Assembly (NCBI GenBank): GCA_965209035.1
Contig: OZ242372.1
Span: 1,376,001 to 1,440,000, forward strand
DNA length: 64,000 bases
Direction: 5' to 3'
Origin: Gammaproteobacteria bacterium
GTDB taxonomy: Bacteria; Pseudomonadota; Gammaproteobacteria; CBDBNL01; JAAOII01
This document shows, piece by piece, positions 29,294 through 43,820 of this stretch. Both the position numbers and the translations under genes were made by a program. The stretch's first letter is position 1. Each line of letters opens with the position of its first letter. Under the pieces are notes generated by a model, which searched no databases, was not told the origin of the DNA, and worked only from the letters and a program-made list of their open reading frames with translations.

Positions 29294-30196
29294 TCACTCG
29301 GCGGGATTAAAATCCGCCAGTTGTTGGCGAACCTGGCCGAATGCCTTTTTTTCTATCTGCCGGACGCGTTCAGCCGAGATGTCGTACTTTGTTGCCAGTT
29401 CCTGCAGGGAAGTTTTTTGCGGCAGAAGCCATCTTTGTTTGATGATGTCGCGACTTCTCTCGTCAAGCAATCCGATACCCCGTGCCAATGCCAGATGCAG
29501 TCGCTCTTTTCGGTCGTCTATCATAGTGCGCTGTTCGGGATTATCTATGTCGTCCGGCAAGTAGTTGAGTAGGGTGGAAGAATCACCTTCTTCGTCTTCT
29601 ATTGTGGCGTCCAGGGATACATCACCGCCGGTCAGGCGCGCTTCCATTGCCCGCGTTTCCTCGGGGGTGACGCCCAGGTCCTTGGCGATGGCTTTTGCCT
29701 CGTCGTCTGTCATCCACGCCAGTCGCTTCTTGTGGCTGCGCAGATTGAAAAAGAGTTTGCGCTGGGCCTTGGTGGTGGCGATCTTGACCAGGCTCCAATT
29801 TTTGAGAATGTATTCGTGAATTTCCGCCCGTATCCAGTAAACGGCAAAGGTGATTAAACGCACCTTTCTGTTAGGGTCAAATCGCTTGACCGCTCGCATT
29901 AATCCGATGTTCCCTTCTTGGATGAGGTCCGCCAGCGGCAGGCCGTATCCTTCGTATGAGCGGGCGATATATACGACAAAGCGCAGGTTGGAGATAACCA
30001 GCGAGCGCGCCGCCATCAGGTCCTGTTTTTCGTATAGTTTGTGTGCCAGTTCTTGCTCCTTTTCCGGTGTCAGCATGTCTACTTGGCGAATTGCCCTTAA
30101 ATAGGCAGTTAAACTTTGTTGCGGACTCGCATTAATGGGTAACATACCATAGCTCTTTTTGGTGGCGGGAGTCAATGCAGCCTTTTTTGCATTCAT
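29294..30196 (-). CDS. rpoH: RNA polymerase sigma-32 factor
   Basis: DLIQEGNIGLM, RpoH box QRKLFFNLR and SAERVRQIE. Confidence 0.97.
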   Translation of the reverse strand: MNAKKAALTPATKKSYGMLPINASPQQSLTAYLRAIRQVDMLTPEKEQELAHKLYEKQDLMAARSLVISNLRFVVYIARSYEGYGLPLADLIQEGNIGLMRAVKRFDPNRKVRLITFAVYWIRAEIHEYILKNWSLVKIATTKAQRKLFFNLRSHKKRLAWMTDDEAKAIAKDLGVTPEETRAMEARLTGGDVSLDATIEDEEGDSSTLLNYLPDDIDNPEQRTMIDDRKERLHLALARGIGLLDERSRDIIKQRWLLPQKTSLQELATKYDISAERVRQIEKKAFGQVRQQLADFNPAE

Positions 30197-30352
30197 TACG
30201 ATTTATTATAGGGAACAATTTTTTTGTGTTGTTTGTTCGTTTATCCTCTTATGTATTATCTGTATCATCCCACCCGGTTTTGGAATCTGTGTATTGAGAA
30301 TGGTGCCGATGAGAGTTATTTGTGAGTTTGAGGGTGCACAATGCTAAGTTTA

Positions 30353-30513
30353 AAGCCCGAAGCCCGAAGCCCGAAACTTGAAGCCCGAAACCTGAAGCCC
30401 GAAACTTGAAGCCCGAAACCTGAAGCCTGAAACTTGAAGCCCGAAACCCGAAACCCGAAACCCGAAACCCTAAACCCGAAACTTGGAGCCCGAAACCCGA
30501 AACCCGAAACCTT
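30353..30513. repeat. Heptanucleotide tandem repeat, ~23 units (AAGCCCG/AAACCCG/AAACTTG/AAACCTG)
   Basis: 7-bp phase read directly across 161 bp. Confidence 0.92.
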
Positions 30514-30638
30514 GCCGGGATGATGCCCGTATTTTTAGATTTTTAAAAACAAGTTGCCCTTCTGTTTGCATTCATCCCCGCTGATGTGCATTTCTCTTTT
30601 GGCTGGCAATCGTTTCTCACATTTCATTCGTCATTTTT

Positions 30639-30647
30639 TGGTATAAT
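30639..30647 (+). promoter_or_regulatory. Extended -10 promoter element (TGnTATAAT) in the array leader; also at 31876-31884 and 33154-33162
   Basis: Conserved in all three leader copies, ~75 nt upstream of the ATG and followed by a GGAGGA RBS. Confidence 0.55.
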
Positions 30648-30721
30648 AATAGTATGTTTTATGTTGGTAAGACATTAATTGGAAGGATTATTTTATTAGT
30701 AATTACTTGGGAGGAATCACT

Positions 30722-30964
30722 ATGACAACATCATCTATCATTGAAATGGCAATGCATATGAGAGCGGCGACCGGCAACGCAGAGCATTCGGATGCTTTCT
30801 TGGCCGGACTGGAAAAGCGCGAAGCCGAACGCGAAGCACGACATCGTGCCGATCAAGACCGCTTCATCGCGGCGGTGCAGCGTGAGCTAACTTTGCAACG
30901 CTGGTTCTTTGTTGCCGCTGTTGCGGCAATGGGTTTGGTTGTGGCGGCTATTTCCGTGGCTTAA
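30722..30964 (+). CDS. Small coiled-coil membrane-anchored protein, array copy 1 (80 aa)
   Basis: GGAGGA RBS; conserved head and C-terminal TM; 4-aa variable stalk. Confidence 0.8.
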   Translation: MTTSSIIEMAMHMRAATGNAEHSDAFLAGLEKREAEREARHRADQDRFIAAVQRELTLQRWFFVAAVAAMGLVVAAISVA

Positions 30965-31032
30965 ACTTAAATTCCACTACTTCTTGTTTTACAAGAGGGA
31001 CTGCGGAACTTGTTCACCCGGAGATAGTTGAA

Positions 31033-31371
31033 ATGGCAATGCATATGAGAGAGGCAACCGGCGACGCAGAGCATTCGGATGCTTTCTTGGCCGGACTGGA
31101 AAAGCGCGAAGCCGAACGCGAGGCCGAGCGTAAAGAACAACGCCGCGCTGATGAAGTACAACGCCGTGCCGATGAGGCTAAACGCGAAGCACAACATCGT
31201 GCCGATGAGGCTAAACGCGAAGCACAACATCGCGCCGATGAAGCTAAACGCAGTGCCGATCAAGACCGCTTTATCGCGACGGTGCAGCGTGAGCTGACTT
31301 TGCAACGCTGGTTTTTGCTTGCCTCTGTTGCGATCATAGGTTTGGTTGTGGCGGCTATTGCCGTGGCTTAA
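31033..31371 (+). CDS. Array copy 2 (112 aa)
   Basis: Same head and anchor; 44-aa stalk. Confidence 0.8.
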   Translation: MAMHMREATGDAEHSDAFLAGLEKREAEREAERKEQRRADEVQRRADEAKREAQHRADEAKREAQHRADEAKRSADQDRFIATVQRELTLQRWFLLASVAIIGLVVAAIAVA

Positions 31372-31444
31372 ATTCCGCTGCTTCTTGTTTTGCTTCCGGT
31401 TTTACAAGAGGGACTGCGGAACTTGTTTGCCCGGGGAAGTTAAA

Positions 31445-31783
31445 ATGGCAATGCATATGAGAGCGGCGACCGGCAACGCAGAGTATTCGGATGCTTTCTT
31501 GGCCGGACTGGAGAAGCGCGAAGCCGAACGCGAGGCCGAGCGTAAAGAACAACGTCGTGCCGATGAAGCTAAACACGAAGCACAGCGTAGTGCCGATGAG
31601 GCCCAACATCGTGCTGATGCAGCCGAGCGTAAAGAACAGCGTCGTGCCGATGAGGCACAACATCGTGCCGATCAAGACCGCTTCATCGCGACGGTGCAGC
31701 GTGAGTTCGCTCTGCAACGCTGGTTTTTGCTTGCCTCTGTTGCGATCATAGGCTTGGTTGTGACGGCTATTTCTGTGGCTTAA
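31445..31783 (+). CDS. Array copy 3 (112 aa)
   Basis: Same head and anchor; 44-aa stalk with a different module order. Confidence 0.8.
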   Translation: MAMHMRAATGNAEYSDAFLAGLEKREAEREAERKEQRRADEAKHEAQRSADEAQHRADAAERKEQRRADEAQHRADQDRFIATVQREFALQRWFLLASVAIIGLVVTAISVA

Positions 31784-31958
31784 ATTCCGCTTGTCCTTCT
31801 GTTTGCATTCATCCCCGCTGATGTGGATTTTTCTTTTGGTTGGCAATTATGTTTCATATTTCATTCGTCATTTTTTGGTATAATAATAATATGTTTTATG
31901 TTGGTAAGACATTAATTGGAAAGATTATTTTATTGGTAATTCCTTGGGAGGAATCACT

Positions 31959-32234
31959 ATGACAACATCATCTATCATTGAAATGGCAATGCATATGAGA
32001 GCGGCAACCGGTAACGCGGAGCACTCGGATGCTTTCTTGGCCGGACTGGAAAAGCGCGAAGCCGAACGTGAAGCCGAGCGTAAAGAACAACGCCGTGCCG
32101 ATGAGGCACGACATCGTGCCGATCAAGACCGCTTTATCGCGACGGTGCAGCGTGAGCTGACTCTGCAACGCTGGTTTTTGCTTGCCTCTGTTGCGATCAT
32201 AGGCTTGGTTGTGACGGCTATTTCCGTGGCTTAA
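31959..32234 (+). CDS. Array copy 4 (91 aa)
   Basis: Own leader and RBS; 15-aa stalk. Confidence 0.8.
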   Translation: MTTSSIIEMAMHMRAATGNAEHSDAFLAGLEKREAEREAERKEQRRADEARHRADQDRFIATVQRELTLQRWFLLASVAIIGLVVTAISVA

Positions 32235-32356
32235 ATTCCGCTGCTTCTTGTAAAACAAGAGGGACTGCGAAACTGGGATCAGTCGGGAATAATAGAAGGA
32301 CGCACCAAAAACTATCAAAAAGAGTTGAATAACTTGTTCACCCGGAGATAGTTGAA

Positions 32357-32650
32357 ATGGCAATGCATATGAGAGAGTCAACCGGCGACGCAGAGCATTC
32401 GGATGCTTTCTTGGCCGGACTGGAAAAGCGCGAAGCCGAACGCGAGGCACAACGTCGTGCCGATGAAGACGAGCGTAAAGAACAACGTCGTGCGGATGAG
32501 GCACAGCATCGTGCCGATGAAGCTAAACGCAGTGCCGATCAAGACCGCTTCATCGCGGCGGTGCAGCGTGAGCTCACTTTGCAACGCTGGTTCTTTGTTG
32601 CCGCCGTTGCGGCCATGGGTTTGGTTGTGACGGCTATTTCCGTGGCTTAA
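32357..32650 (+). CDS. Array copy 5 (97 aa)
   Basis: Same head and anchor; 29-aa stalk. Confidence 0.8.
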   Translation: MAMHMRESTGDAEHSDAFLAGLEKREAEREAQRRADEDERKEQRRADEAQHRADEAKRSADQDRFIAAVQRELTLQRWFFVAAVAAMGLVVTAISVA

Positions 32651-32711
32651 ATTCCGCTGTTTCTTGTTTTACAAGAGGGACTGCGGAACTTGTTCGCCCG
32701 GGGAGGTTGAA

Positions 32712-32984
32712 ATGGCAATGCATATGAGAGCGGCAACCGGCGACGCAGAGCATTCGGATGCTTTTTTGGCCGGACTGGAAAGGCGCGAAGCCGAACGTGA
32801 GGCAAAACGCGAAGCACAGCGTCGTGCCGATGAGGCACAACATCGTGCCGATGAAGCTAAACGCAGTGCTGACCAAGACCGCTTCATCGCGGCGGTGCAG
32901 CGTGAGCTGACTTTGCAACGCTGGTTCTTTGTTGCCGCTGTTGCGACCATGGGTTTGGTTGTGGCGGCTATTTCCGTGGCTTAA
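32712..32984 (+). CDS. Array copy 6 (90 aa)
   Basis: GGAGG RBS; 22-aa stalk. Confidence 0.8.
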   Translation: MAMHMRAATGDAEHSDAFLAGLERREAEREAKREAQRRADEAQHRADEAKRSADQDRFIAAVQRELTLQRWFFVAAVATMGLVVAAISVA

Positions 32985-33236
32985 ATTCCGCCAGTCCTTG
33001 TTTTGCCTCCGGTTTTACAAGAGGCATCGCGAAGCGAAACGGGGCTTAGTCGGGAATAGTAGCGGAACACACCATACCGATTTTTCCGGGATGATGCCCG
33101 TATTTTTAGATTTCTAAAAACAAGTCGTCCTTCCGGTTTCATTCATCATTTTTTGATATAATAATAGTATGTTTTATGTTGGTAAGACATTGATTGGAAA
33201 GATTATTTTATTGGTAATTACTTAGGAGGAATGACT

Positions 33237-33500
33237 ATGACAACATCATCTATCATTGAAATGGCAATGCATATGAGAGCGGCAACCGGCAACGTCGAGC
33301 ATTCGGATGCTTTCTTGGCCGGACTGGAAAAGCGCGAAGCCGAACGCGAGGCACAACATCGTGCCGATGAAGCTAAACGCAGTGCTGATCAAGACCGCTT
33401 CATCGCGGCGGTGCAGCGTGAGCTAACTTTGCAACGCTGGTTCTTTGTTGCCGCTGTTGCGGCCATGGGTTTGGTTGTGGCGGCTATTTCCGTGGCTTAA
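33237..33500 (+). CDS. Array copy 7 (87 aa)
   Basis: Own leader and RBS; 11-aa stalk. Confidence 0.8.
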   Translation: MTTSSIIEMAMHMRAATGNVEHSDAFLAGLEKREAEREAQHRADEAKRSADQDRFIAAVQRELTLQRWFFVAAVAAMGLVVAAISVA

Positions 33501-33736
33501 ACTTAAATTCCACTGCTTCTTGTTTTGCTTCCGGCTTTACAAGCGGCATCGCGAAGCGAAACGGGGCTTAGCTGGGAATAATAGCGGAACACACCATACC
33601 AAACTTAGAGTCCAAAACCTTGCCGGGATGACGCAGTTTGTGTATCATTCCCCTCGGCTTTGGATGTCCGCCCTTGCCGGGCTTTTTGAATTCCAAACCC
33701 TTGCGTTTGGATTTGGGCTTACTTTTAGGCTTACTT

Positions 33737-35113
33737 TTAAATTAGCCTTTTGGGGTCCAGGAGTTTGCGCAGTTCTGTCTCGCTCAGATCGGTCATTTCT
33801 TTTGCCACTTCAAGTACCGGTCGGCCTTGCTTGTATGCCTGTTTGGCGATGGCGGCGCCTTTTTCGTAGCCGATGACCTGATTGAGGGCGGTGACCAGAA
33901 TGGGGTTGCGTTCCAGCGGAATACGAATGTTGTCTTCTCGCACCGTGAAATCTTTGATGGCCTTGTCGGCGAGTAGCCTGCAAGAGTTTGTCATCAGGTG
34001 GCAGGATTGAAGGAGATTGTAAGCGATGACCGGCAGCATGACATTGAGTTGAAAGTTGCCGGAGAGGCCGCCGAGGGCGACAGTGGTATCGTTGCCGATA
34101 ACCTGTGCCGATGCCATGCAGACAGATTCGCCGATGACCGGATTGACCTTGCCGGGCATGATGCTGCTGCCGGGCTGTAGGGCGGGCAGTTCAATTTCGC
34201 CCAGACCGGCGAGGGGGCCGCTGTTCATCCAACGCAGGTCGTTGGCAATTTTCATCAGGACGACGGCGAGGCCGCGCAGTTTGGCGCTCGTTTCCACGGG
34301 GGCGTCCTGTGCGGAGAGACCGGCAAAGAAGTTGTTCATCACCGTGAATTTCAGCCCGGTTTTGCGGTTGAGAGCTGCGACAAACTTGCGGGAGAATCCT
34401 TTTTCGGCGTTAATGCCGGTGCCGACGGCTGTGCCGCCTTGCGGCAGGGCGGCAAGACGCGGCAGGGCGTCTTCTATCGCCTTTTTGGCATCGCGCAGCT
34501 GGGCACTCCAGCCGCCCATCTCCTGCTTCAAACTCAACGGCATGGCATCCATTAAATGCGTGCGGCCGGTTTTTATGACTTTGGCGTGTTGGTTCGCCTT
34601 TTTATCGGTTGTTCGGATCAAATGTTCCAATGCCGGTAACAGGGACAGGCGTATGTGGGCAACCGCGCTGACTTTGATGGCGGTCGGGATGACATCGTTG
34701 GAACTTTGGCTCATATTGACATGGTCGTTGGGATGGACGGCCTGCTTGCCTGCGGATGCCAATGAGGCGATGACTTCGTTGGCGTTCATGTTGGAACTGG
34801 TGCCGGAGCCGGTCTGAAAGACATCTATGGGGAACTGGGCGTCGTGCTTGCCGGCTGCGACCGCATTGGCCGCCTGTTGAATTTTTTTGCCGAGGGCCGG
34901 CTTGAGTTTGCCCAATTGCATATTGGCTTCGGCACAGGAGAACTTGATATGTCCGAGTGCTTCAATGAAACGGCGCGGCATTTTCAGGTCGCTGACCGGG
35001 AAGTTGGCAACCGCCCGTCCGGTCTGGGCGCCGTAAAGAGCGTCCGCCGGGATTAGGACTTCGCCCATGCTGTCACGGACTTTTTGATGCTTTGTTGTTG
35101 TTTTGTCGTTCAT
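33737..35113 (-). CDS. fumC: Fumarate hydratase class II
   Basis: QTGSGTSSNMNANE, HPNDHVNMSQSSND, GRTHLMDA and GSSIMPGKVNP. Confidence 0.96.
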   Translation of the reverse strand: MNDKTTTKHQKVRDSMGEVLIPADALYGAQTGRAVANFPVSDLKMPRRFIEALGHIKFSCAEANMQLGKLKPALGKKIQQAANAVAAGKHDAQFPIDVFQTGSGTSSNMNANEVIASLASAGKQAVHPNDHVNMSQSSNDVIPTAIKVSAVAHIRLSLLPALEHLIRTTDKKANQHAKVIKTGRTHLMDAMPLSLKQEMGGWSAQLRDAKKAIEDALPRLAALPQGGTAVGTGINAEKGFSRKFVAALNRKTGLKFTVMNNFFAGLSAQDAPVETSAKLRGLAVVLMKIANDLRWMNSGPLAGLGEIELPALQPGSSIMPGKVNPVIGESVCMASAQVIGNDTTVALGGLSGNFQLNVMLPVIAYNLLQSCHLMTNSCRLLADKAIKDFTVREDNIRIPLERNPILVTALNQVIGYEKGAAIAKQAYKQGRPVLEVAKEMTDLSETELRKLLDPKRLI

Positions 35114-38567: not shown

Positions 38568-40994
38568 CTACCTGCCTTGCGCCGAGAGGCCGTCCGGCAT
38601 GCAGTTCAGGGCGGGATATTGGCTGCTCGTGCCCAGATCCCAAACACTTAAGAATCCGTCCGGCTGGGCATCCACTTCCATTACTGCGCCCGTATCCGGA
38701 TGACACCAGATGCCACCCCAGTCTTCATAGATACCTGCGAAAGTAAGCGGGCTTTTCAGCTGGGCGGTGGTCTGCCCCGTACCCAAATTAGCAGCACTGT
38801 TTGACTGTTGGGTGGTTTGAGTATCCCAATAGGAGGCAGTGACGACAGCCGGAGGACTATCAAATATCTGGCCAATCAAGCCTCCAACCTGGGGACTAGA
38901 AGAGGTAATTAAAATCTGCCCGGTAGCGGCATAAGAATAATAAGTTTGACTGAGCTCCCCATTCCCTATTAGTCCGCCAGCACGAATATCCCCGGTAACA
39001 CTTCCGCCGGATACATAAGTATAGCGAGCGGACGCGAATTGCCCCAGCCCAATTAGCCCGCCAACACTAACCCCCGTTCCGGAAACATCTACGCCGAGCA
39101 CATAGGCATAGCGAATATTTGTCGCCCCACTTCCAATCAGTCCGCCACCATCAGAATCAATCGTGTTAACACTTCCGCTAGAAGCATAAACATAGCGAAT
39201 AGTAGCCCCTCCTCCAGCCCCAGTCAATCCGCCAACAGCAGTACTCCCGACAACATTTAGACCGGATACACCGGCATAGCGAATGGTAGTACGCGACCCA
39301 TCCCCAACCAGCCCGCCCACGCTGATGGCGGACGGACTCATCACACTGACATCCGTAACTGACAGATTCTCATAACGGCCATTCTGACCATTGCCGACCA
39401 GTCCGCCCACAGCAGCTGCACCGCCACGGACAGTTGCATTCCGGAGATGCAGATTTTGCACACTGCCATTGAACGCACCGAATAAGCCCACTCCATTGGC
39501 GGTATCCTCCGCCGAAATGAACAGATCAGCAAGAGTGTGATCCCGACCATCAAAGATTCCCGCATAAGGGGTGCAATCATTAGGGGCAACACAGGAGCCA
39601 ATCGGCACCCAGCCGCTGCCGGTCGTCCAGGCAGTATTAACGGTGCCGTCGGCATAGGAAGCCGCATCGCTAAAATTGAGCGAGCGGGTCAATTCATAAC
39701 CCACACAGCCATCTGGGACCGGACAGCCCACAGATTCCACAGTAATTGCATCAATCTCATTGTCATCCATCCCATTGCCATCCAGATCATCGCGCAGCAG
39801 GGCCAGTTGATCCAAATTGTGAATCTCGATCAAGCCGTTATTGTTGTCATCCGAATCACAGGCATCCCCGAGTGTATCTGTATCGTTATTGAACTGCTCC
39901 GGATTTCCAACTAGCGGACAATTATCCATCCCATTCACCACATCATCGTCATCATCATCGGCATTCGGATCCGCTCCGATTGTGTGCTCAACCGCAGCCG
40001 AAAGGACGGGATCTGGACGACCCGCATAACGCACCGCAACTGTGATCTCGTAGGTGGCATCATAAATAAGCCCCGTAATGGTGTCCGTATTATCCGAAGC
40101 ACCCGCCGCAACATTCACTTCGTCAGAATCAAGTTCCTCTGTGCCGCTATCGGCATCATCATCAACATTGACCCAATTAATATTGAACCCGATAATCTCA
40201 CCCTGACCATCCTGACTCGGATTGGTCCAACTCACGGTAATGGTATTCCCGCTGACCATGGCTTGGACATCGGAAACAGCCGGGAACCTGGGATCACCAC
40301 CGCCATTCGGATCCGCCCCGGCCGTGCCTTGAGTGGAAACAGAAGTAGAGGATGAGCCATCCATATAAAGCACCGCAATCGTGATCCGGTAGGTGATGCC
40401 ATTGGTTAGACCCGTAATGTTGAACATCACCAGACTCCCGGGCTGCAGCAAATCCGCCGCAGGCGTCAGCAGCCGCACATCGGTGGCATTAAGGATAATT
40501 CCCTCAACGCTCATATCGTCGACGTTAAACAAAGTGATATTGAACCCGGTGATATTCTCCCGGTTCGGATTGGTCCAACTCACGAGAATATTCTCCTCAC
40601 CGACCATGGTTTGAATGTTGGAAACAGCCCGGCCATCACCGCCGCCGCCACCGGAACCGCCGCCTCCGCCGCCGGCACAACCGGCAAGGACCAAACCGAA
40701 CATACCTGTAAGCAGAAGGGTACACCCTAAACTTCCGAAACGCCCCAAACGAGCCAAATTTCGCAAACGAGCCAGCCGTTTCATCCGCAGGCCGGCATTA
40801 AAAAAGGCTGCCGCTAGCGGCGATAGAACCCGCCCGGCAAACAACCTTAGCGACCGCCAAGCATTGATGGGGTAAAAGATTAGAGGCATTGCCTTGAAGT
40901 TATTATTATTAAAGGAGACACGCGAATTTCGGGCGTCTTTGCCGGCGATGCATTGCTTGCACCGACCGGACAGGAAAAGAGATATCTTGTTCAT
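38568..40994 (-). CDS. Lipoprotein with 2x Fn3, TSP3-like and GLUG-like (VGGLVG) repeats, paralog 1
   Basis: LAGC lipobox plus poly-Gly; VSWTNP Fn3 motifs; DNCP..GDACD; WDLG..QYPAL C-terminus. Start is uncertain. Confidence 0.8.
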   Translation of the reverse strand: MNKISLFLSGRCKQCIAGKDARNSRVSFNNNNFKAMPLIFYPINAWRSLRLFAGRVLSPLAAAFFNAGLRMKRLARLRNLARLGRFGSLGCTLLLTGMFGLVLAGCAGGGGGGSGGGGGDGRAVSNIQTMVGEENILVSWTNPNRENITGFNITLFNVDDMSVEGIILNATDVRLLTPAADLLQPGSLVMFNITGLTNGITYRITIAVLYMDGSSSTSVSTQGTAGADPNGGGDPRFPAVSDVQAMVSGNTITVSWTNPSQDGQGEIIGFNINWVNVDDDADSGTEELDSDEVNVAAGASDNTDTITGLIYDATYEITVAVRYAGRPDPVLSAAVEHTIGADPNADDDDDDVVNGMDNCPLVGNPEQFNNDTDTLGDACDSDDNNNGLIEIHNLDQLALLRDDLDGNGMDDNEIDAITVESVGCPVPDGCVGYELTRSLNFSDAASYADGTVNTAWTTGSGWVPIGSCVAPNDCTPYAGIFDGRDHTLADLFISAEDTANGVGLFGAFNGSVQNLHLRNATVRGGAAAVGGLVGNGQNGRYENLSVTDVSVMSPSAISVGGLVGDGSRTTIRYAGVSGLNVVGSTAVGGLTGAGGGATIRYVYASSGSVNTIDSDGGGLIGSGATNIRYAYVLGVDVSGTGVSVGGLIGLGQFASARYTYVSGGSVTGDIRAGGLIGNGELSQTYYSYAATGQILITSSSPQVGGLIGQIFDSPPAVVTASYWDTQTTQQSNSAANLGTGQTTAQLKSPLTFAGIYEDWGGIWCHPDTGAVMEVDAQPDGFLSVWDLGTSSQYPALNCMPDGLSAQGR

Positions 40995-41183
40995 GATTGT
41001 TTTTTATTGTTAAAAATATTAATGGTTATGGTATGAAGCATACTATTATTATAACTTTAATTTCCAAAATTATGCAGAGATTGTCCAATTCCGCCCGGCC
41101 TTGATTTTTTTGTAAAAACCGGATTGGCGAGAGTTATCTATGAGAATCATTGGGACTTGAGAAAGCCGTCTTTTTTGTCTGTG

Positions 41184-43820
41184 TTAGGGTGTTGTTCTGC
41201 CTTGGGATTCCGGGCCGCCGGGTGTGCAGTTCAGGACGGGGTATTCTGTGTCGCTGCCAAGATTCCAGACATACTCGGTAAAACGGCTATTCGCCGGTAT
41301 AGATCCATCGGCAGATTCCATTACATCGCCCGTGTCCGGATCACACACGAAATTACCCCAGGCCGCATAGATATTATCCGTGCCGGTAAAAGTGACGGGC
41401 GTTTGCAGTTCGCTTGTGGTTTTACCTTCGCCGCCGCTGCCCGCACTGTCAGACTGGCCTGTGGTGTCTGTGTCCCAATAAGAAGCACTTATATCACCGA
41501 ACTGGCCGTGGAATATCAATCCTATTAATCCGCCGATGCCGTTATCACCGGATAGGCTGTCAACAGCCGCATAAGAATACTCAATATTTGTGCCCGTGCC
41601 GGTTCCCGTTAGTCCGCCGATGGATCTGTTCGTGCCGGTAACACTGCCACCGGTCGTGTAAGAATGGCTAATCGTTGCGGTGCTGCCGCCTCCGATTAAT
41701 CCGCCGATTACGGAATCTCCGGTTACATTGCTATTGGTTACATAGGAATAACGAATGCCGGTTTCTGCGCCTTGTCCGACCAGACCGCCTACGGTGTGGG
41801 AAGATCCTTCTATGCTACTGGCGGCCACATAAGAATAACTAATTTTAGCATCCTGCCCGAAACCGACCAGACCGCCTAATGAGTCTTCGGTTCCTTCTAT
41901 GTTGCTATTGGCTACATAAGAACCACTAATCTTAACACCAGGTCCGTGTCCGACCAGCCCGCCCAAAACTCTGGTGCCGCTTACATTACTGTCTTTGACG
42001 ATGACTCCGATGATGGTCGCACTGGTGCCGGCAGCTCTGGTATCTCCGGTATCTCCGACGAGATCTCCCACACTGCGGCCTCCCGAGATCACTCCCGAAA
42101 CCAAAATATTTTCAAAACGGGCATTGGGGGCATAACCCGCTAACAAGCCCGCATCGTTGCTATTTTTGTCACTGATAGCGACATTCGCATCCTCCAGGCG
42201 CAAATTACGCGCTGTTCCGATGAGTGCGGCGAACAACCCAATTCCATTGACTCTTTCATTCCTCATGATATGCAGCCCGACAATACTATGGTTGTTGCCG
42301 TCCAGGATACCGGCATAGGATAACGGACATGTGCTATCGCCCGTACAAGAGCCGATCAGTTCCCAGCCATTGCCACTCGTCCAGACAGACATCTTGTCGC
42401 TGTCTGTGGCATAGGAATCCGCATCATTAAAATCGAGCGAGCGAGTCAATTCATAGCCGATACAGCCGCCGTCGTCATCGTTATCCGGGTCGTCCGGGCA
42501 ACCCATGGATCCCACGGATGTTATCTCGGCAATTCTGCTCTCATCCTCGCCATCGCCGTTCAGATCATCGCGCAGCCGTGCCAGATCGTCCAGAGTACGA
42601 ATCTCTATCAAGCCGTTATTGTCATCGTCCGCATCACAGGCATCGCCGACTTCGTCATCATCGTTATCATCTTGCCCCGCATTGGCAACCGCCCGACAAT
42701 TATCTATCCCGTTCGGCAGACTATCCCCATCATCATCAGCAGTCGGATCTATTTCGGTGGTGCCTTGAACCGGAGCAGCAACCACGGATGTGCCATCCTC
42801 ATAAAGCACCGTAATCGTAATCTCGTAGATGGTGTCATATTCCAGGTCCGCAATGGTATGCATCCTGTCGTCCGCATCAAGTACCATGACTCCGTTATCG
42901 CTTGCGTCTTCAATGGCGGTCCAATTGATACTGAGCCCGGTGATGTCATCCTGATCCGGATTGGTCCAACGCACGATAATTGTATTTCTGCTAGCGGTGG
43001 TTTGGATACCGAAAACAGACCGGTCTGCTTTTAAAGATGTCGTGCAACCTGCAATCAGACGATCCGGCATGCCATCTTCATCCGTGTCGGCACTCGCACA
43101 AGCATCCAGATGAAACGCATCTTCGCTATTCCCAACACCGTCATCATCAATGTCCGAGTCCGTACTGTCCGTTCCCGTCGTCCTTCGCACAGGTTCCGAA
43201 TCCACAGAATCGCCGTTCTCATAGATCACCGTAATCCTGATCTCGTAGTCTACGCCATTGGTTAGACCCTTAATGTTGTAGATCACCCGTTCGCCGGGCA
43301 GCAGCAAGCTACCGACGGGTGTACGCAGATCCGCATTGGTGGAATTAACTGAAATCATTTTAGGATCAGTCCGATTTACGGTATTGTTCGCAGCATTGAT
43401 CGAAGTAATGCTGAAACCGATGATATTCTCCCGGTTCGGATTGGTCCAACCCACCAGAATACTATTCTCACCGACTATGGTTTGGATCTTGGAAACAGCG
43501 CGGGGATCACCGCCGCCGGAACCGCCGCCGGAACCGCCACCACCACAGCCGGCAAGGACCAAAGCAAGCATGCCGGTCAGCAGAACGGCATAAAAACGAG
43601 CCGGCCAATGAGTCTGCCGAAAAGCGGCAAAGACTGTCGTTAGCGGCGATAATGTGGTAACCCACCCGGCAAACAACCGTAGCGACCGCCAAGCATTGAT
43701 TGGGCAAAAGATTAGAGGCATTGCATTGAAGTTATTAAAGGAGACACGCGAATTTCGGGCGTCTTTGCCGGCAGTGTATTTCTTGCACCGACCGAACAGG
43801 AAAAGGTATATCTTGTTCAT
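41184..43820 (-). CDS. Fn3/TSP3/GLUG-like lipoprotein, paralog 2
   Basis: Same architecture as paralog 1. Confidence 0.8.
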   Translation of the reverse strand: MNKIYLFLFGRCKKYTAGKDARNSRVSFNNFNAMPLIFCPINAWRSLRLFAGWVTTLSPLTTVFAAFRQTHWPARFYAVLLTGMLALVLAGCGGGGSGGGSGGGDPRAVSKIQTIVGENSILVGWTNPNRENIIGFSITSINAANNTVNRTDPKMISVNSTNADLRTPVGSLLLPGERVIYNIKGLTNGVDYEIRITVIYENGDSVDSEPVRRTTGTDSTDSDIDDDGVGNSEDAFHLDACASADTDEDGMPDRLIAGCTTSLKADRSVFGIQTTASRNTIIVRWTNPDQDDITGLSINWTAIEDASDNGVMVLDADDRMHTIADLEYDTIYEITITVLYEDGTSVVAAPVQGTTEIDPTADDDGDSLPNGIDNCRAVANAGQDDNDDDEVGDACDADDDNNGLIEIRTLDDLARLRDDLNGDGEDESRIAEITSVGSMGCPDDPDNDDDGGCIGYELTRSLDFNDADSYATDSDKMSVWTSGNGWELIGSCTGDSTCPLSYAGILDGNNHSIVGLHIMRNERVNGIGLFAALIGTARNLRLEDANVAISDKNSNDAGLLAGYAPNARFENILVSGVISGGRSVGDLVGDTGDTRAAGTSATIIGVIVKDSNVSGTRVLGGLVGHGPGVKISGSYVANSNIEGTEDSLGGLVGFGQDAKISYSYVAASSIEGSSHTVGGLVGQGAETGIRYSYVTNSNVTGDSVIGGLIGGGSTATISHSYTTGGSVTGTNRSIGGLTGTGTGTNIEYSYAAVDSLSGDNGIGGLIGLIFHGQFGDISASYWDTDTTGQSDSAGSGGEGKTTSELQTPVTFTGTDNIYAAWGNFVCDPDTGDVMESADGSIPANSRFTEYVWNLGSDTEYPVLNCTPGGPESQGRTTP

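Follow-up and report, generated by a model that had tools for sequence, protein, structure and literature searches.

In a Gammaproteobacteria bacterium, a tandem array of seven small paralogous genes lies between rpoH and fumC in a 64,000-nucleotide (nt) stretch of DNA, here called the window (contig OZ242372.1 of assembly GCA_965209035.1, forward strand, positions 1,376,001 to 1,440,000; coordinates below are those within the window). The seven predicted proteins share a head, a neck and a hydrophobic C-terminus, and they differ in the length of a stalk composed of 7-residue and 11-residue modules. We propose, tentatively and with slightly less than even confidence, that the set of lengths (rods of about 2.4–8.4 nm) is used, the proteins serving as tethers or spacers for a common partner.

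Seven complete open reading frames (ORFs) on the plus strand make up the array. They are given here with their likeliest starts:

Copy 1, 30722..30964, plus strand: long head; stalk of 4 amino acids; anchor FFVAAVAAMG.
Copy 2, 31033..31371, plus strand: short head; stalk of 44 amino acids (11-7-11-11-4); anchor FLLASVAIIG.
Copy 3, 31445..31783, plus strand: short head; stalk of 44 amino acids (11-11-7-11-4); anchor FLLASVAIIG.
Copy 4, 31959..32234, plus strand: long head; stalk of 15 amino acids (11-4); anchor FLLASVAIIG.
Copy 5, 32357..32650, plus strand: short head; stalk of 29 amino acids (7-11-7-4); anchor FFVAAVAAMG.
Copy 6, 32712..32984, plus strand: short head; stalk of 22 amino acids (11-7-4); anchor FFVAAVATMG.
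Copy 7, 33237..33500, plus strand: long head; stalk of 11 amino acids (7-4); anchor FFVAAVAAMG.

The proteins, 72–112 amino acids in size, follow one plan in all seven copies. A head of about 30–38 residues, (M)AMHMRxxTGxxExSDAFLAGLExREAERE, is followed by the variable stalk, then by a conserved, membrane-proximal neck, ADQDRFIAxVQRE(L/F)(T/A)LQRW, and finally by 19 hydrophobic residues that form the C-terminus. When aligned from the MAMHM motif, the copies were 85–97% identical to copy 1 over the alignable parts. A regular-expression parse of all seven sequences gave stalks of 4, 44, 44, 15, 29, 22 and 11 amino acids for copies 1 to 7, and these consisted solely of 7-mers (AQHRADE type), 11-mers (AERKEQRRADE and AKREAQHRADE types) and a terminal 4. 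The terminal 4 together with the next ADQ makes one more heptad, so that the entire stalk is composed of 7s and 11s. In copy 2, Tandem Repeats Finder reported the corresponding DNA at 31153–31251 as a 33-bp repeat in 3.0 copies. Two anchor alleles were present, FFVAAVA(A/T)MG in copies 1, 5, 6 and 7 and FLLASVAIIG in copies 2, 3 and 4. An earlier note on this DNA had described seven intact paralogs with a shared head and anchor, these stalk lengths with their exact modularity, and this distribution of the two anchor alleles; our results agree with it on each of these points.

The variable sites in the head and anchor (n = 35) were distributed over codon positions 1, 2 and 3 as 12, 4 and 19. 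In the head the pooled ratio of nonsynonymous to synonymous change (pN/pS) was 0.20 and in the anchor it was 0.43, pS being about 0.15–0.16; selection, which the earlier note had named as a point to be checked, is therefore purifying in both parts. The module AERKEQRRADE occurs four times, in four distinct DNA strings whose differences are synonymous only. Taken together, the third-position bias, the low pN/pS and the synonymous variants of the module argue that selection is acting at the protein level, on the modules as well. As for the long frames on the reverse strand of the array, they are best explained as by-products of the repeat composition.

Recombination between copies had been suggested earlier from the assortment of anchors with heads, and the four-gamete test bears this out. 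Among 18 informative sites of the head and anchor, 71 of the 153 pairs carried all four gametes, which corresponds to at least five recombination events. Of the possible combinations of head variant (residue 11 is N or D) with anchor allele and with leader type, nearly all are represented, and three modules are identical in DNA between different copies.

For the analysis of its physical properties we defined the rod as the segment from EKREAERE of the head through to ADQD, which is 16–56 residues long. Its overall composition is 22% Glu, 22% Arg, 21% Ala, 12% Asp, 9% Gln and 8% Lys. Many pairs of opposite charge stand at i/i+3 and i/i+4, and heptad positions 1 and 5 are recurrently alanine. 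Because the rods are 59–70% charged and contain only 0–1 large hydrophobic residues per protein, the description of the stalks as coiled coils in the earlier note appears doubtful, at least for a coiled coil of the classical type. The composition fits a single charged helix, or at most a weak alanine seam, better. A homodimer prediction with two copy 6 chains (alignment A3) gave a score of 0.01 compared with a mark of 0.42, which speaks neither for nor against self-association. Seven and 11 residues correspond to about two and three helical turns, respectively; at 100 degrees per residue, the phase changes by −20 degrees with a 7-mer, by +20 degrees with an 11-mer and by 0 with an 18-mer.

In all seven copies the last 19 residues have a mean hydropathy of 2.4–2.9 and are the only hydrophobic stretch. 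The soluble part of 52–92 residues is near-neutral, with 18–44 charged residues, and the copies showed neither a signal peptide nor a lipobox or sorting signal. The proteins are predicted to be tail-anchored in the inner membrane. Because arginines are confined to the N-terminal side of the hydrophobic helix, the head and rod should, by the positive-inside rule, be cytoplasmic.

The length variation extends to close relatives. Among 5.8 billion proteins searched, 25 formed a close group, of which 7 were the window's own; the other 18 were encoded on contigs of 16784 bp (9 proteins), 130463 bp (8 proteins) and 40387 bp (1 protein). The 7/11 rule was obeyed by 24 of the 25, with stalks of 4 to 73 amino acids. 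The sets were 4, 11, 18, 26, 33, 40, 44 and 51 on the 16784-bp contig, 4, 11, 11, 11, 15, 18, 33 and 44 on the 130463-bp contig, and 73 on the 40387-bp contig. The minimal 4-residue form and forms of 44–51 residues were present in all three multi-copy genomes. Copy 3 and the relative P0015 have the architecture 11-11-7-11 plus 4 in common, and the architectures of P0002 and P0012 are one heptad apart. The single exception to the rule, P0025 on the 16784-bp contig, starts out (MLFWPDW) in frame +1 of the head and is in the normal frame from EKREAERE onward, which suggests a 1-nt change near a GGAAAAG run; it may be a pseudogene or the result of a sequencing error.

More distant relatives were found by profile searches. 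The first, against 1.84 billion representatives, gave 9 proteins at E ≤ 0.001, and the second gave 47 proteins. Distant relatives share the head motif A..LR.ATGN.E.SDAF..ALEERE and the C-terminal hydrophobic helix. Some of them carry 18-residue (7+11) repeats (RKAEQDRVIAQMRHDELQ) and 7-residue repeats (LQNKQLE), and six are encoded on one contig of 2167023 bp. One distant relative, P0036, has a short stalk in which no internal repeat was seen. Across the family, only the head and the neck-anchor region are conserved. One of the 9 proteins from the first search, the repetitive P0029 of 938 amino acids, was regarded as a spurious match and not as a member. No fused or longer forms were detected at E ≤ 0.01 among 8000 scored candidates of 274–2000 amino acids, which is weak evidence, and scans of genome, metagenome and viral contig collections for the relatives' loci found no locus.

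Elsewhere in the genome of the window there is an eighth copy of 102 amino acids, 47% identical (G000:C1:267846-268115; L009:1462-1770, minus strand). A remnant beside it (L009:1217-1552) retains only the first 15 codons of a further copy. From the eighth copy and the adjoining remnant we conclude that the tandem arrangement is old in this lineage. By our reading of the translations, the neighbours of the eighth copy are an oxidoreductase-like gene and an isomerase-like gene.

The earlier note had conjectured a diversifying set of molecular rulers or of hetero-oligomeric membrane proteins. How such a set might work can be sketched as follows. The locus would produce small tail-anchored inner-membrane proteins, each with the common head carried on an uninterrupted charged Ala/Glu/Arg rod on the cytoplasmic side. 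The rod modules are encoded by DNA repeats of 21 and 33 bp. Exchange among modules and copies, by unequal recombination and gene conversion, would lengthen or shorten the rod by about 1.0 or 1.6 nm at a time, and with every such step the head would turn by only some 20 degrees with respect to the anchor. One common head would in this way be placed at about 2.4 to 8.4 nm from the membrane (16–56 rod residues, 0.15 nm each). The proteins would then act as tethers or spacers on the cytoplasmic membrane face, and the head would be offered either to a single shared partner or to the other members of the set.

Several points weigh against the proposal that the set of lengths is used. The helicity of the rod and the form of the head are judged from amino acid composition. 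The in-frame state of the stalks, which the earlier note had taken as a sign that register is preserved, is a weak argument, as the stalks are in frame by construction with repeat units of 21 and 33 bp; these are multiples of three, so the absence of frameshifts is no evidence of selection. The spread of lengths is not demonstrably even: two stalks in the window have 44 residues and, because one relative's contig (that of 130463 bp) has three copies of the 11-residue length, an even ladder is not a rule. One hint in favour of the proposal, a balance of 7s and 11s in long rods, has a P value that is overstated because the tested proteins are partly orthologs: in the 10 proteins with at least 4 modules, the mean |n11−n7| was 0.90 compared with 1.85 in permutations (P = 0.013); in this test P0007 was wrongly left out by a filter and P0025 was unparsed. 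The neighbours of the array (rpoH, fumC and petABC) give no functional hint. Finally, the family is dispensable for close kin, because it was not found in 4 other genomes of the taxonomic family, 5 others of the order and 399 other sampled genomes of the class (one genome was unscored).

A more demanding version of the proposal seems to us unlikely. It would see in the array an encoded length ladder of stiff single-helix rods, with module shuffling kept by selection, identical heads presented at graded heights and rotational phase kept; a mixed bundle or brush of such rods would position a cytoplasmic structure. The 18-residue repeats of the distant relatives would then be the same solution reached independently.

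A serious alternative, which we consider doubtful but well within reach of the data, is that these are real tail-anchored proteins in which rod length drifts neutrally, and that function lies in the head, neck, anchor or dosage, for example in membrane protection or stress adaptation of the ElaB type. In-frame changes of length follow from the repeat sizes. Identical lengths occur within one genome (44/44 here, 11/11/11 on the 130463-bp contig), the short stalk of P0036 is without visible internal repeat, and family-wide conservation is limited to the head and the neck-anchor region. ElaB itself offers a precedent as a C-tail-anchored protein that, according to one report, contributes to membrane integrity under oxidative stress (PMC6389858). 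However, neutral length does not readily account for the module peptides preserved through synonymous change, nor for the retention of both the 4-residue and the 44–51-residue forms in three multi-copy genomes. The balance of 7s and 11s in long rods also speaks against it, weakly, as does the lack of any DUF883 match in the copies or elsewhere in the genome.

The upstream regions bear on another alternative. From the leader types and the spacers of the copies, the array looks like three operon-like transcription units, consisting of copies 1-2-3, copies 4-5-6 and copy 7. Copies 1, 4 and 7 have the long head form (MTTSSIIEMAMHM...), the start of which adds MTTSSIIE ahead of MAMHM, and a near-invariant stretch precedes them that contains TG(G/A)TATAAT, about 70 nt of AT-rich leader and, 7 nt ahead of the ATG, the motif GGAGG. 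Copies 2, 3, 5 and 6 have the short form (MAMHM...), start at MAMHM and are separated from the preceding gene by a short conserved spacer that carries GGAGA or GGGGA. The frame upstream of the short-form starts is not conserved among these copies, with a 1-nt difference in alignment A5. A Shine-Dalgarno-like motif is present ahead of every ATG. The three leaders are:

Leader of unit 1, 30636..30721, plus strand: promoter-like TGGTATAAT, with a putative −10 hexamer at 30642-30647; AT-rich 5′ region; GGAGG 7 nt before the ATG.
Leader of unit 2, 31873..31958, plus strand: promoter-like, with a putative −10 hexamer at 31879-31884.
Leader of unit 3, 33151..33236, plus strand: promoter-like TGATATAAT, with a putative −10 hexamer at 33157-33162.

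The promoter-like string is kept at all four family loci of this genome, including that of the eighth copy. A sigma-32-type promoter was sought by eye upstream of copies 1 and 4, and the idea was dropped because of the poor fit to the consensus. The leader folded no better than shuffled sequences (z = +0.70), and Rfam gave no match over 30100-33800, leader included.

A candidate hydrophobic upstream frame of 23 codons, MFYVGKTLIG(R/K)IILLVI(T/P)WEESL, runs through the leaders at 30654-30725 and 31891-31962; in unit 3 (33169-33225) it ends at a TAG stop after 18 codons. The TGA that ends it shares bases with the ATG of copies 1 and 4 (ATGA). Because its own ATG is 7 nt past the −10 box, the transcript of this frame may be leaderless. 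The eighth copy is preceded by a different 23-codon frame, likewise beginning MFY. The candidate frame cannot be told apart from a conserved untranslated leader.

It has to be considered, then, whether the proteins are small membrane-active toxins, lysis factors or holin-like factors, possibly under control of the upstream frame or of an antisense RNA as in multi-copy type I toxin-antitoxin loci. We regard this as very unlikely. The proteins are small, with one hydrophobic helix and a tandem multi-copy arrangement, the conserved leader contains the possible 23-codon hydrophobic frame overlapping the main ATG, and the nearest clusters in a language-model look-up were unnamed viral proteins, at 0.83, a value within the range of shuffled sequences. 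On the other hand, the proteins have 72–112 residues with a long, strongly hydrophilic part, and the leader, as noted, lacks both an Rfam match and a fold better than shuffles. Searches of PHROG (best E = 0.0021 among 10 members) and PADLOC (best E = 0.0074 among 21 members) gave nothing credible. No match to the distant relative P0036 was found in phage and plasmid collections with tblastn, the viral contig collections gave none, and the flanks of the array are housekeeping genes.

A periplasmic or surface-facing head and rod, with variation of length and sequence as a means to evade phages or a host, is highly improbable. Families of paralogs with variable repeats are often surface-exposed, and the array varies among related strains. 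However, a part of 52–92 residues with 18–44 charged residues would have to cross the membrane without a signal peptide, lipobox or sorting signal, the arginines lie only N-terminal of the hydrophobic helix, and the head is under purifying rather than diversifying selection.

Assembly support was examined with short-read unitigs from three runs of the source sample. The unique junction pieces 31311-31472, 31525-31665, 32214-32360 and 32956-33186 were all present in the unitigs, with no difference from the window sequence. No unitig spans the array; collapse or expansion is thus not fully excluded by independent reads. In one run (X3), minor joints connected 30538 to 33102 and 31374 to 33127, skipping 2563 and 1752 bases, at a depth of 8-10 compared with about 30. 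These joints may come from versions of the array with a smaller number of copies or from another strain present in the sample. A run of another sample contained a diverged strain that was 90-95% alike, and a loose end of this strain translates, by our own reading, to the extra neck segment of the relative P0014. We give almost no credence to the array being an assembly artefact or a set of untranslated repeats, in spite of its being unspanned by any read or unitig and of minor joints such as that of 30538 to 33102 at depth 8 against about 30, since the junction pieces were confirmed in three runs, substitutions are biased to third positions, every gene start has a ribosome-binding site, and comparable arrays are found on independent contigs of other assemblies.

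The array is chromosomal. It is carried on a contig of 2.18 Mb between two housekeeping genes of the minus strand, rpoH at 29294-30196 and fumC at 33737-35113; the cytochrome bc1 genes (petABC) lie farther out. In three genomes of the same taxonomic family, rpoH and fumC are non-adjacent. In the other family of the order, they are 4 kb apart with fabA-like and fabB-like genes between them and no array.

Several repeated elements are found at the array. About 22 tandem CCCGAAA heptanucleotides, also readable as a 28-bp unit, occupy 30353-30511 in the spacer that separates copy 1 from the divergent rpoH. The tract is about 130 nt upstream of the −10 box, outside the promoter spacer, and runs of at least 4 units are found nowhere else in the genome. 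At 30515-30542 and 33086-33113, CCGGGATGATGCCCG forms a hairpin followed by a T-run, a possible terminator, and GGGAATA(G/A)TAGCGGAACACACCATACC is found at 33052-33078 and 33574-33600. For both elements, the two occurrences in the genome are at the array, and the elements may mark the ends of duplicated units. Farther downstream, 38568-43820 (minus strand) encodes proteins of 808 and 878 amino acids, each with a fibronectin type III domain. The promoter-like TATAATAATAGTATG ahead of the first of these genes matches the array promoter over 15 nt.

Upstream, the window starts with a low-GC stretch (1-24237; 0.34-0.45 compared with 0.50-0.58 downstream). It contains two large TPR proteins, McrB-like and McrC-like genes, an RHS-repeat fragment, a PLD-helicase protein adjoining an Eco57I-type methylase of 1265 amino acids, and a second Eco57I-type methylase. 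This stretch is a probable defence island, whose edge is about 6.5 kb short of the array.

The family has no counterpart above threshold in the collections searched, in agreement with the earlier note, which had taken these genes as a candidate for an undescribed system. Neither the seven copies nor seven relatives reached a cut-off in Pfam or NCBIfam, the best Pfam match being compositional (E = 0.0088, 17.2 bits against a cut-off of 27.6), and the best result of a profile search of the PDB was an unrelated tail-anchor receptor (E = 0.037); the PHROG and PADLOC results given above were likewise below threshold. The language-model look-up with a window copy gave values of 0.77-0.78 to clusters carrying DUF1640, KID (Bdr) or XhlA, and with P0036 it gave 0.92 to unnamed clusters and 0.90 to a cluster with PF07798 in 14% of its members; we treat these as leads only. 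Motif and keyword searches of the literature found no description of the family.

If the spread of lengths is functional, the array would be a natural bacterial system in which one binding head is set on membrane-anchored helical spacers of several defined lengths. Such spacing is usually studied with engineered constructs, namely variants of Lpp, of ATP synthase subunit b and of single alpha-helix (SAH) domains. The array would also provide a natural series of 7-residue and 11-residue insertions for effects of phase and length on a membrane-proximal function. Even if length is neutral, the analysis defines a rare, lineage-restricted and unnamed tail-anchored family that is marked by its conserved head motif and has only about 47 members detectable among 5.8 billion proteins, and the array clearly illustrates concerted evolution, with modules shuffled within a tandem set of genes.

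Among known systems, those of the type I toxin or holin-like kind are characterised by a very short, mostly hydrophobic peptide, an antisense or structured RNA partner and a phage or plasmid context, and none of these was found for the array proteins. The earlier note had compared the proteins with Bdr proteins and with the DUF1640/CCDC90-like group. The likeness holds for the architecture and does not extend to demonstrable membership, as none of the seven copies had a row for PF07798 or PF02524 at E ≤ 10.

Bdr proteins have a C-terminal hydrophobic tail. Like the array, they are multi-copy, with a conserved N-terminal part and a variable number of repeats; the membrane association of the array proteins is predicted from their hydrophobic C-terminus. 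Passages of two reports describe Bdr proteins as a multi-copy group with a conserved N-terminal part, variable central repeats, inner-membrane association and a function not yet known (PMC10016077, PMC4370689). The array translations lack the KID or KIE tripeptide that defines the group in the passages of one of these (PMC4370689), and they have no PF02524 match. Moreover, Bdr genes are on cp32/lp28 replicons, whereas the array is chromosomal between housekeeping genes, in an organism that has an rpoH-type sigma factor and is no spirochaete as far as the neighbours show. The modules of the window, of 7 and 11 residues and of Ala/Glu/Arg composition, are a further difference.

Proteins of the DUF1640/CCDC90-like group (PF07798; MCUR1, CCDC90B and prokaryotic proteins) resemble the array proteins in having an N-terminal head, a helical stalk and a C-terminal membrane anchor; for CCDC90B, a head-neck-stalk-anchor plan was reportedly described by Adlakha et al. 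in Structure in 2019. A C-terminal hydrophobic segment suited to be a transmembrane anchor is present in all seven copies (hydropathy 2.4–2.9). The group is defined by a stalk that forms a trimeric coiled coil around a hydrophobic core, together with a globular head and a beta-layer neck; the head of the array proteins has only about 30 residues, and the composition of their rods argues against a classical core of this kind. Apart from the copies, seven relatives had no PF07798 row at E ≤ 1, and the three sub-threshold matches genome-wide were all outside the array. In the parts of a preprint that bear on this, MCUR1-CCDC90B is presented as a coiled-coil membrane scaffold (bioRxiv 10.1101/2025.10.14.682030).

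With ElaB, YqjD and YgaM (DUF883, PF05957), the window copies share a C-tail anchor without an N-terminal signal sequence, the N-terminus being hydrophilic. ElaB of Escherichia coli is described as a protein of the inner membrane (PMC6389858). The group is characterised by induction under stress or in stationary phase, and by a role in membrane integrity or at the ribosome. PF05957 had no row in the copies and no match in the whole genome, with a positive E. coli control. To our knowledge, proteins of the ElaB type have no modular rod of variable length and form no tandem array.

ATP synthase subunit b and subunits E/G of A-type and V-type ATPases are, according to passages of one report, membrane-anchored, Ala/Glu/Arg-rich rods with an 11-residue (hendecad) periodicity (PMC6131620). 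The window rods are likewise membrane-anchored and rich in Ala, Glu and Arg, with 11-residue modules, and weak compositional NCBIfam matches to subunit b were seen (E = 0.012, 15.5 bits against a cut-off of 65.5). However, subunit b is anchored at its N-terminus, so that its topology is reversed, it is a part of a single length in a defined machine, and there is no significant sequence match.

We know of no description of a graded-length set of paralogs anchored by a C-terminal membrane helix, and the literature searches found none. A physical parallel to the rods is found in SAH domains of the ER/K type, which are known mainly from eukaryotic motor and scaffold proteins and whose known role is that of stiff spacers of defined length. 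The rods of the array proteins resemble them in their Glu/Arg/Ala-rich composition, their ion pairs and their scarcity of large hydrophobic residues, with alanines that could form a weak seam.

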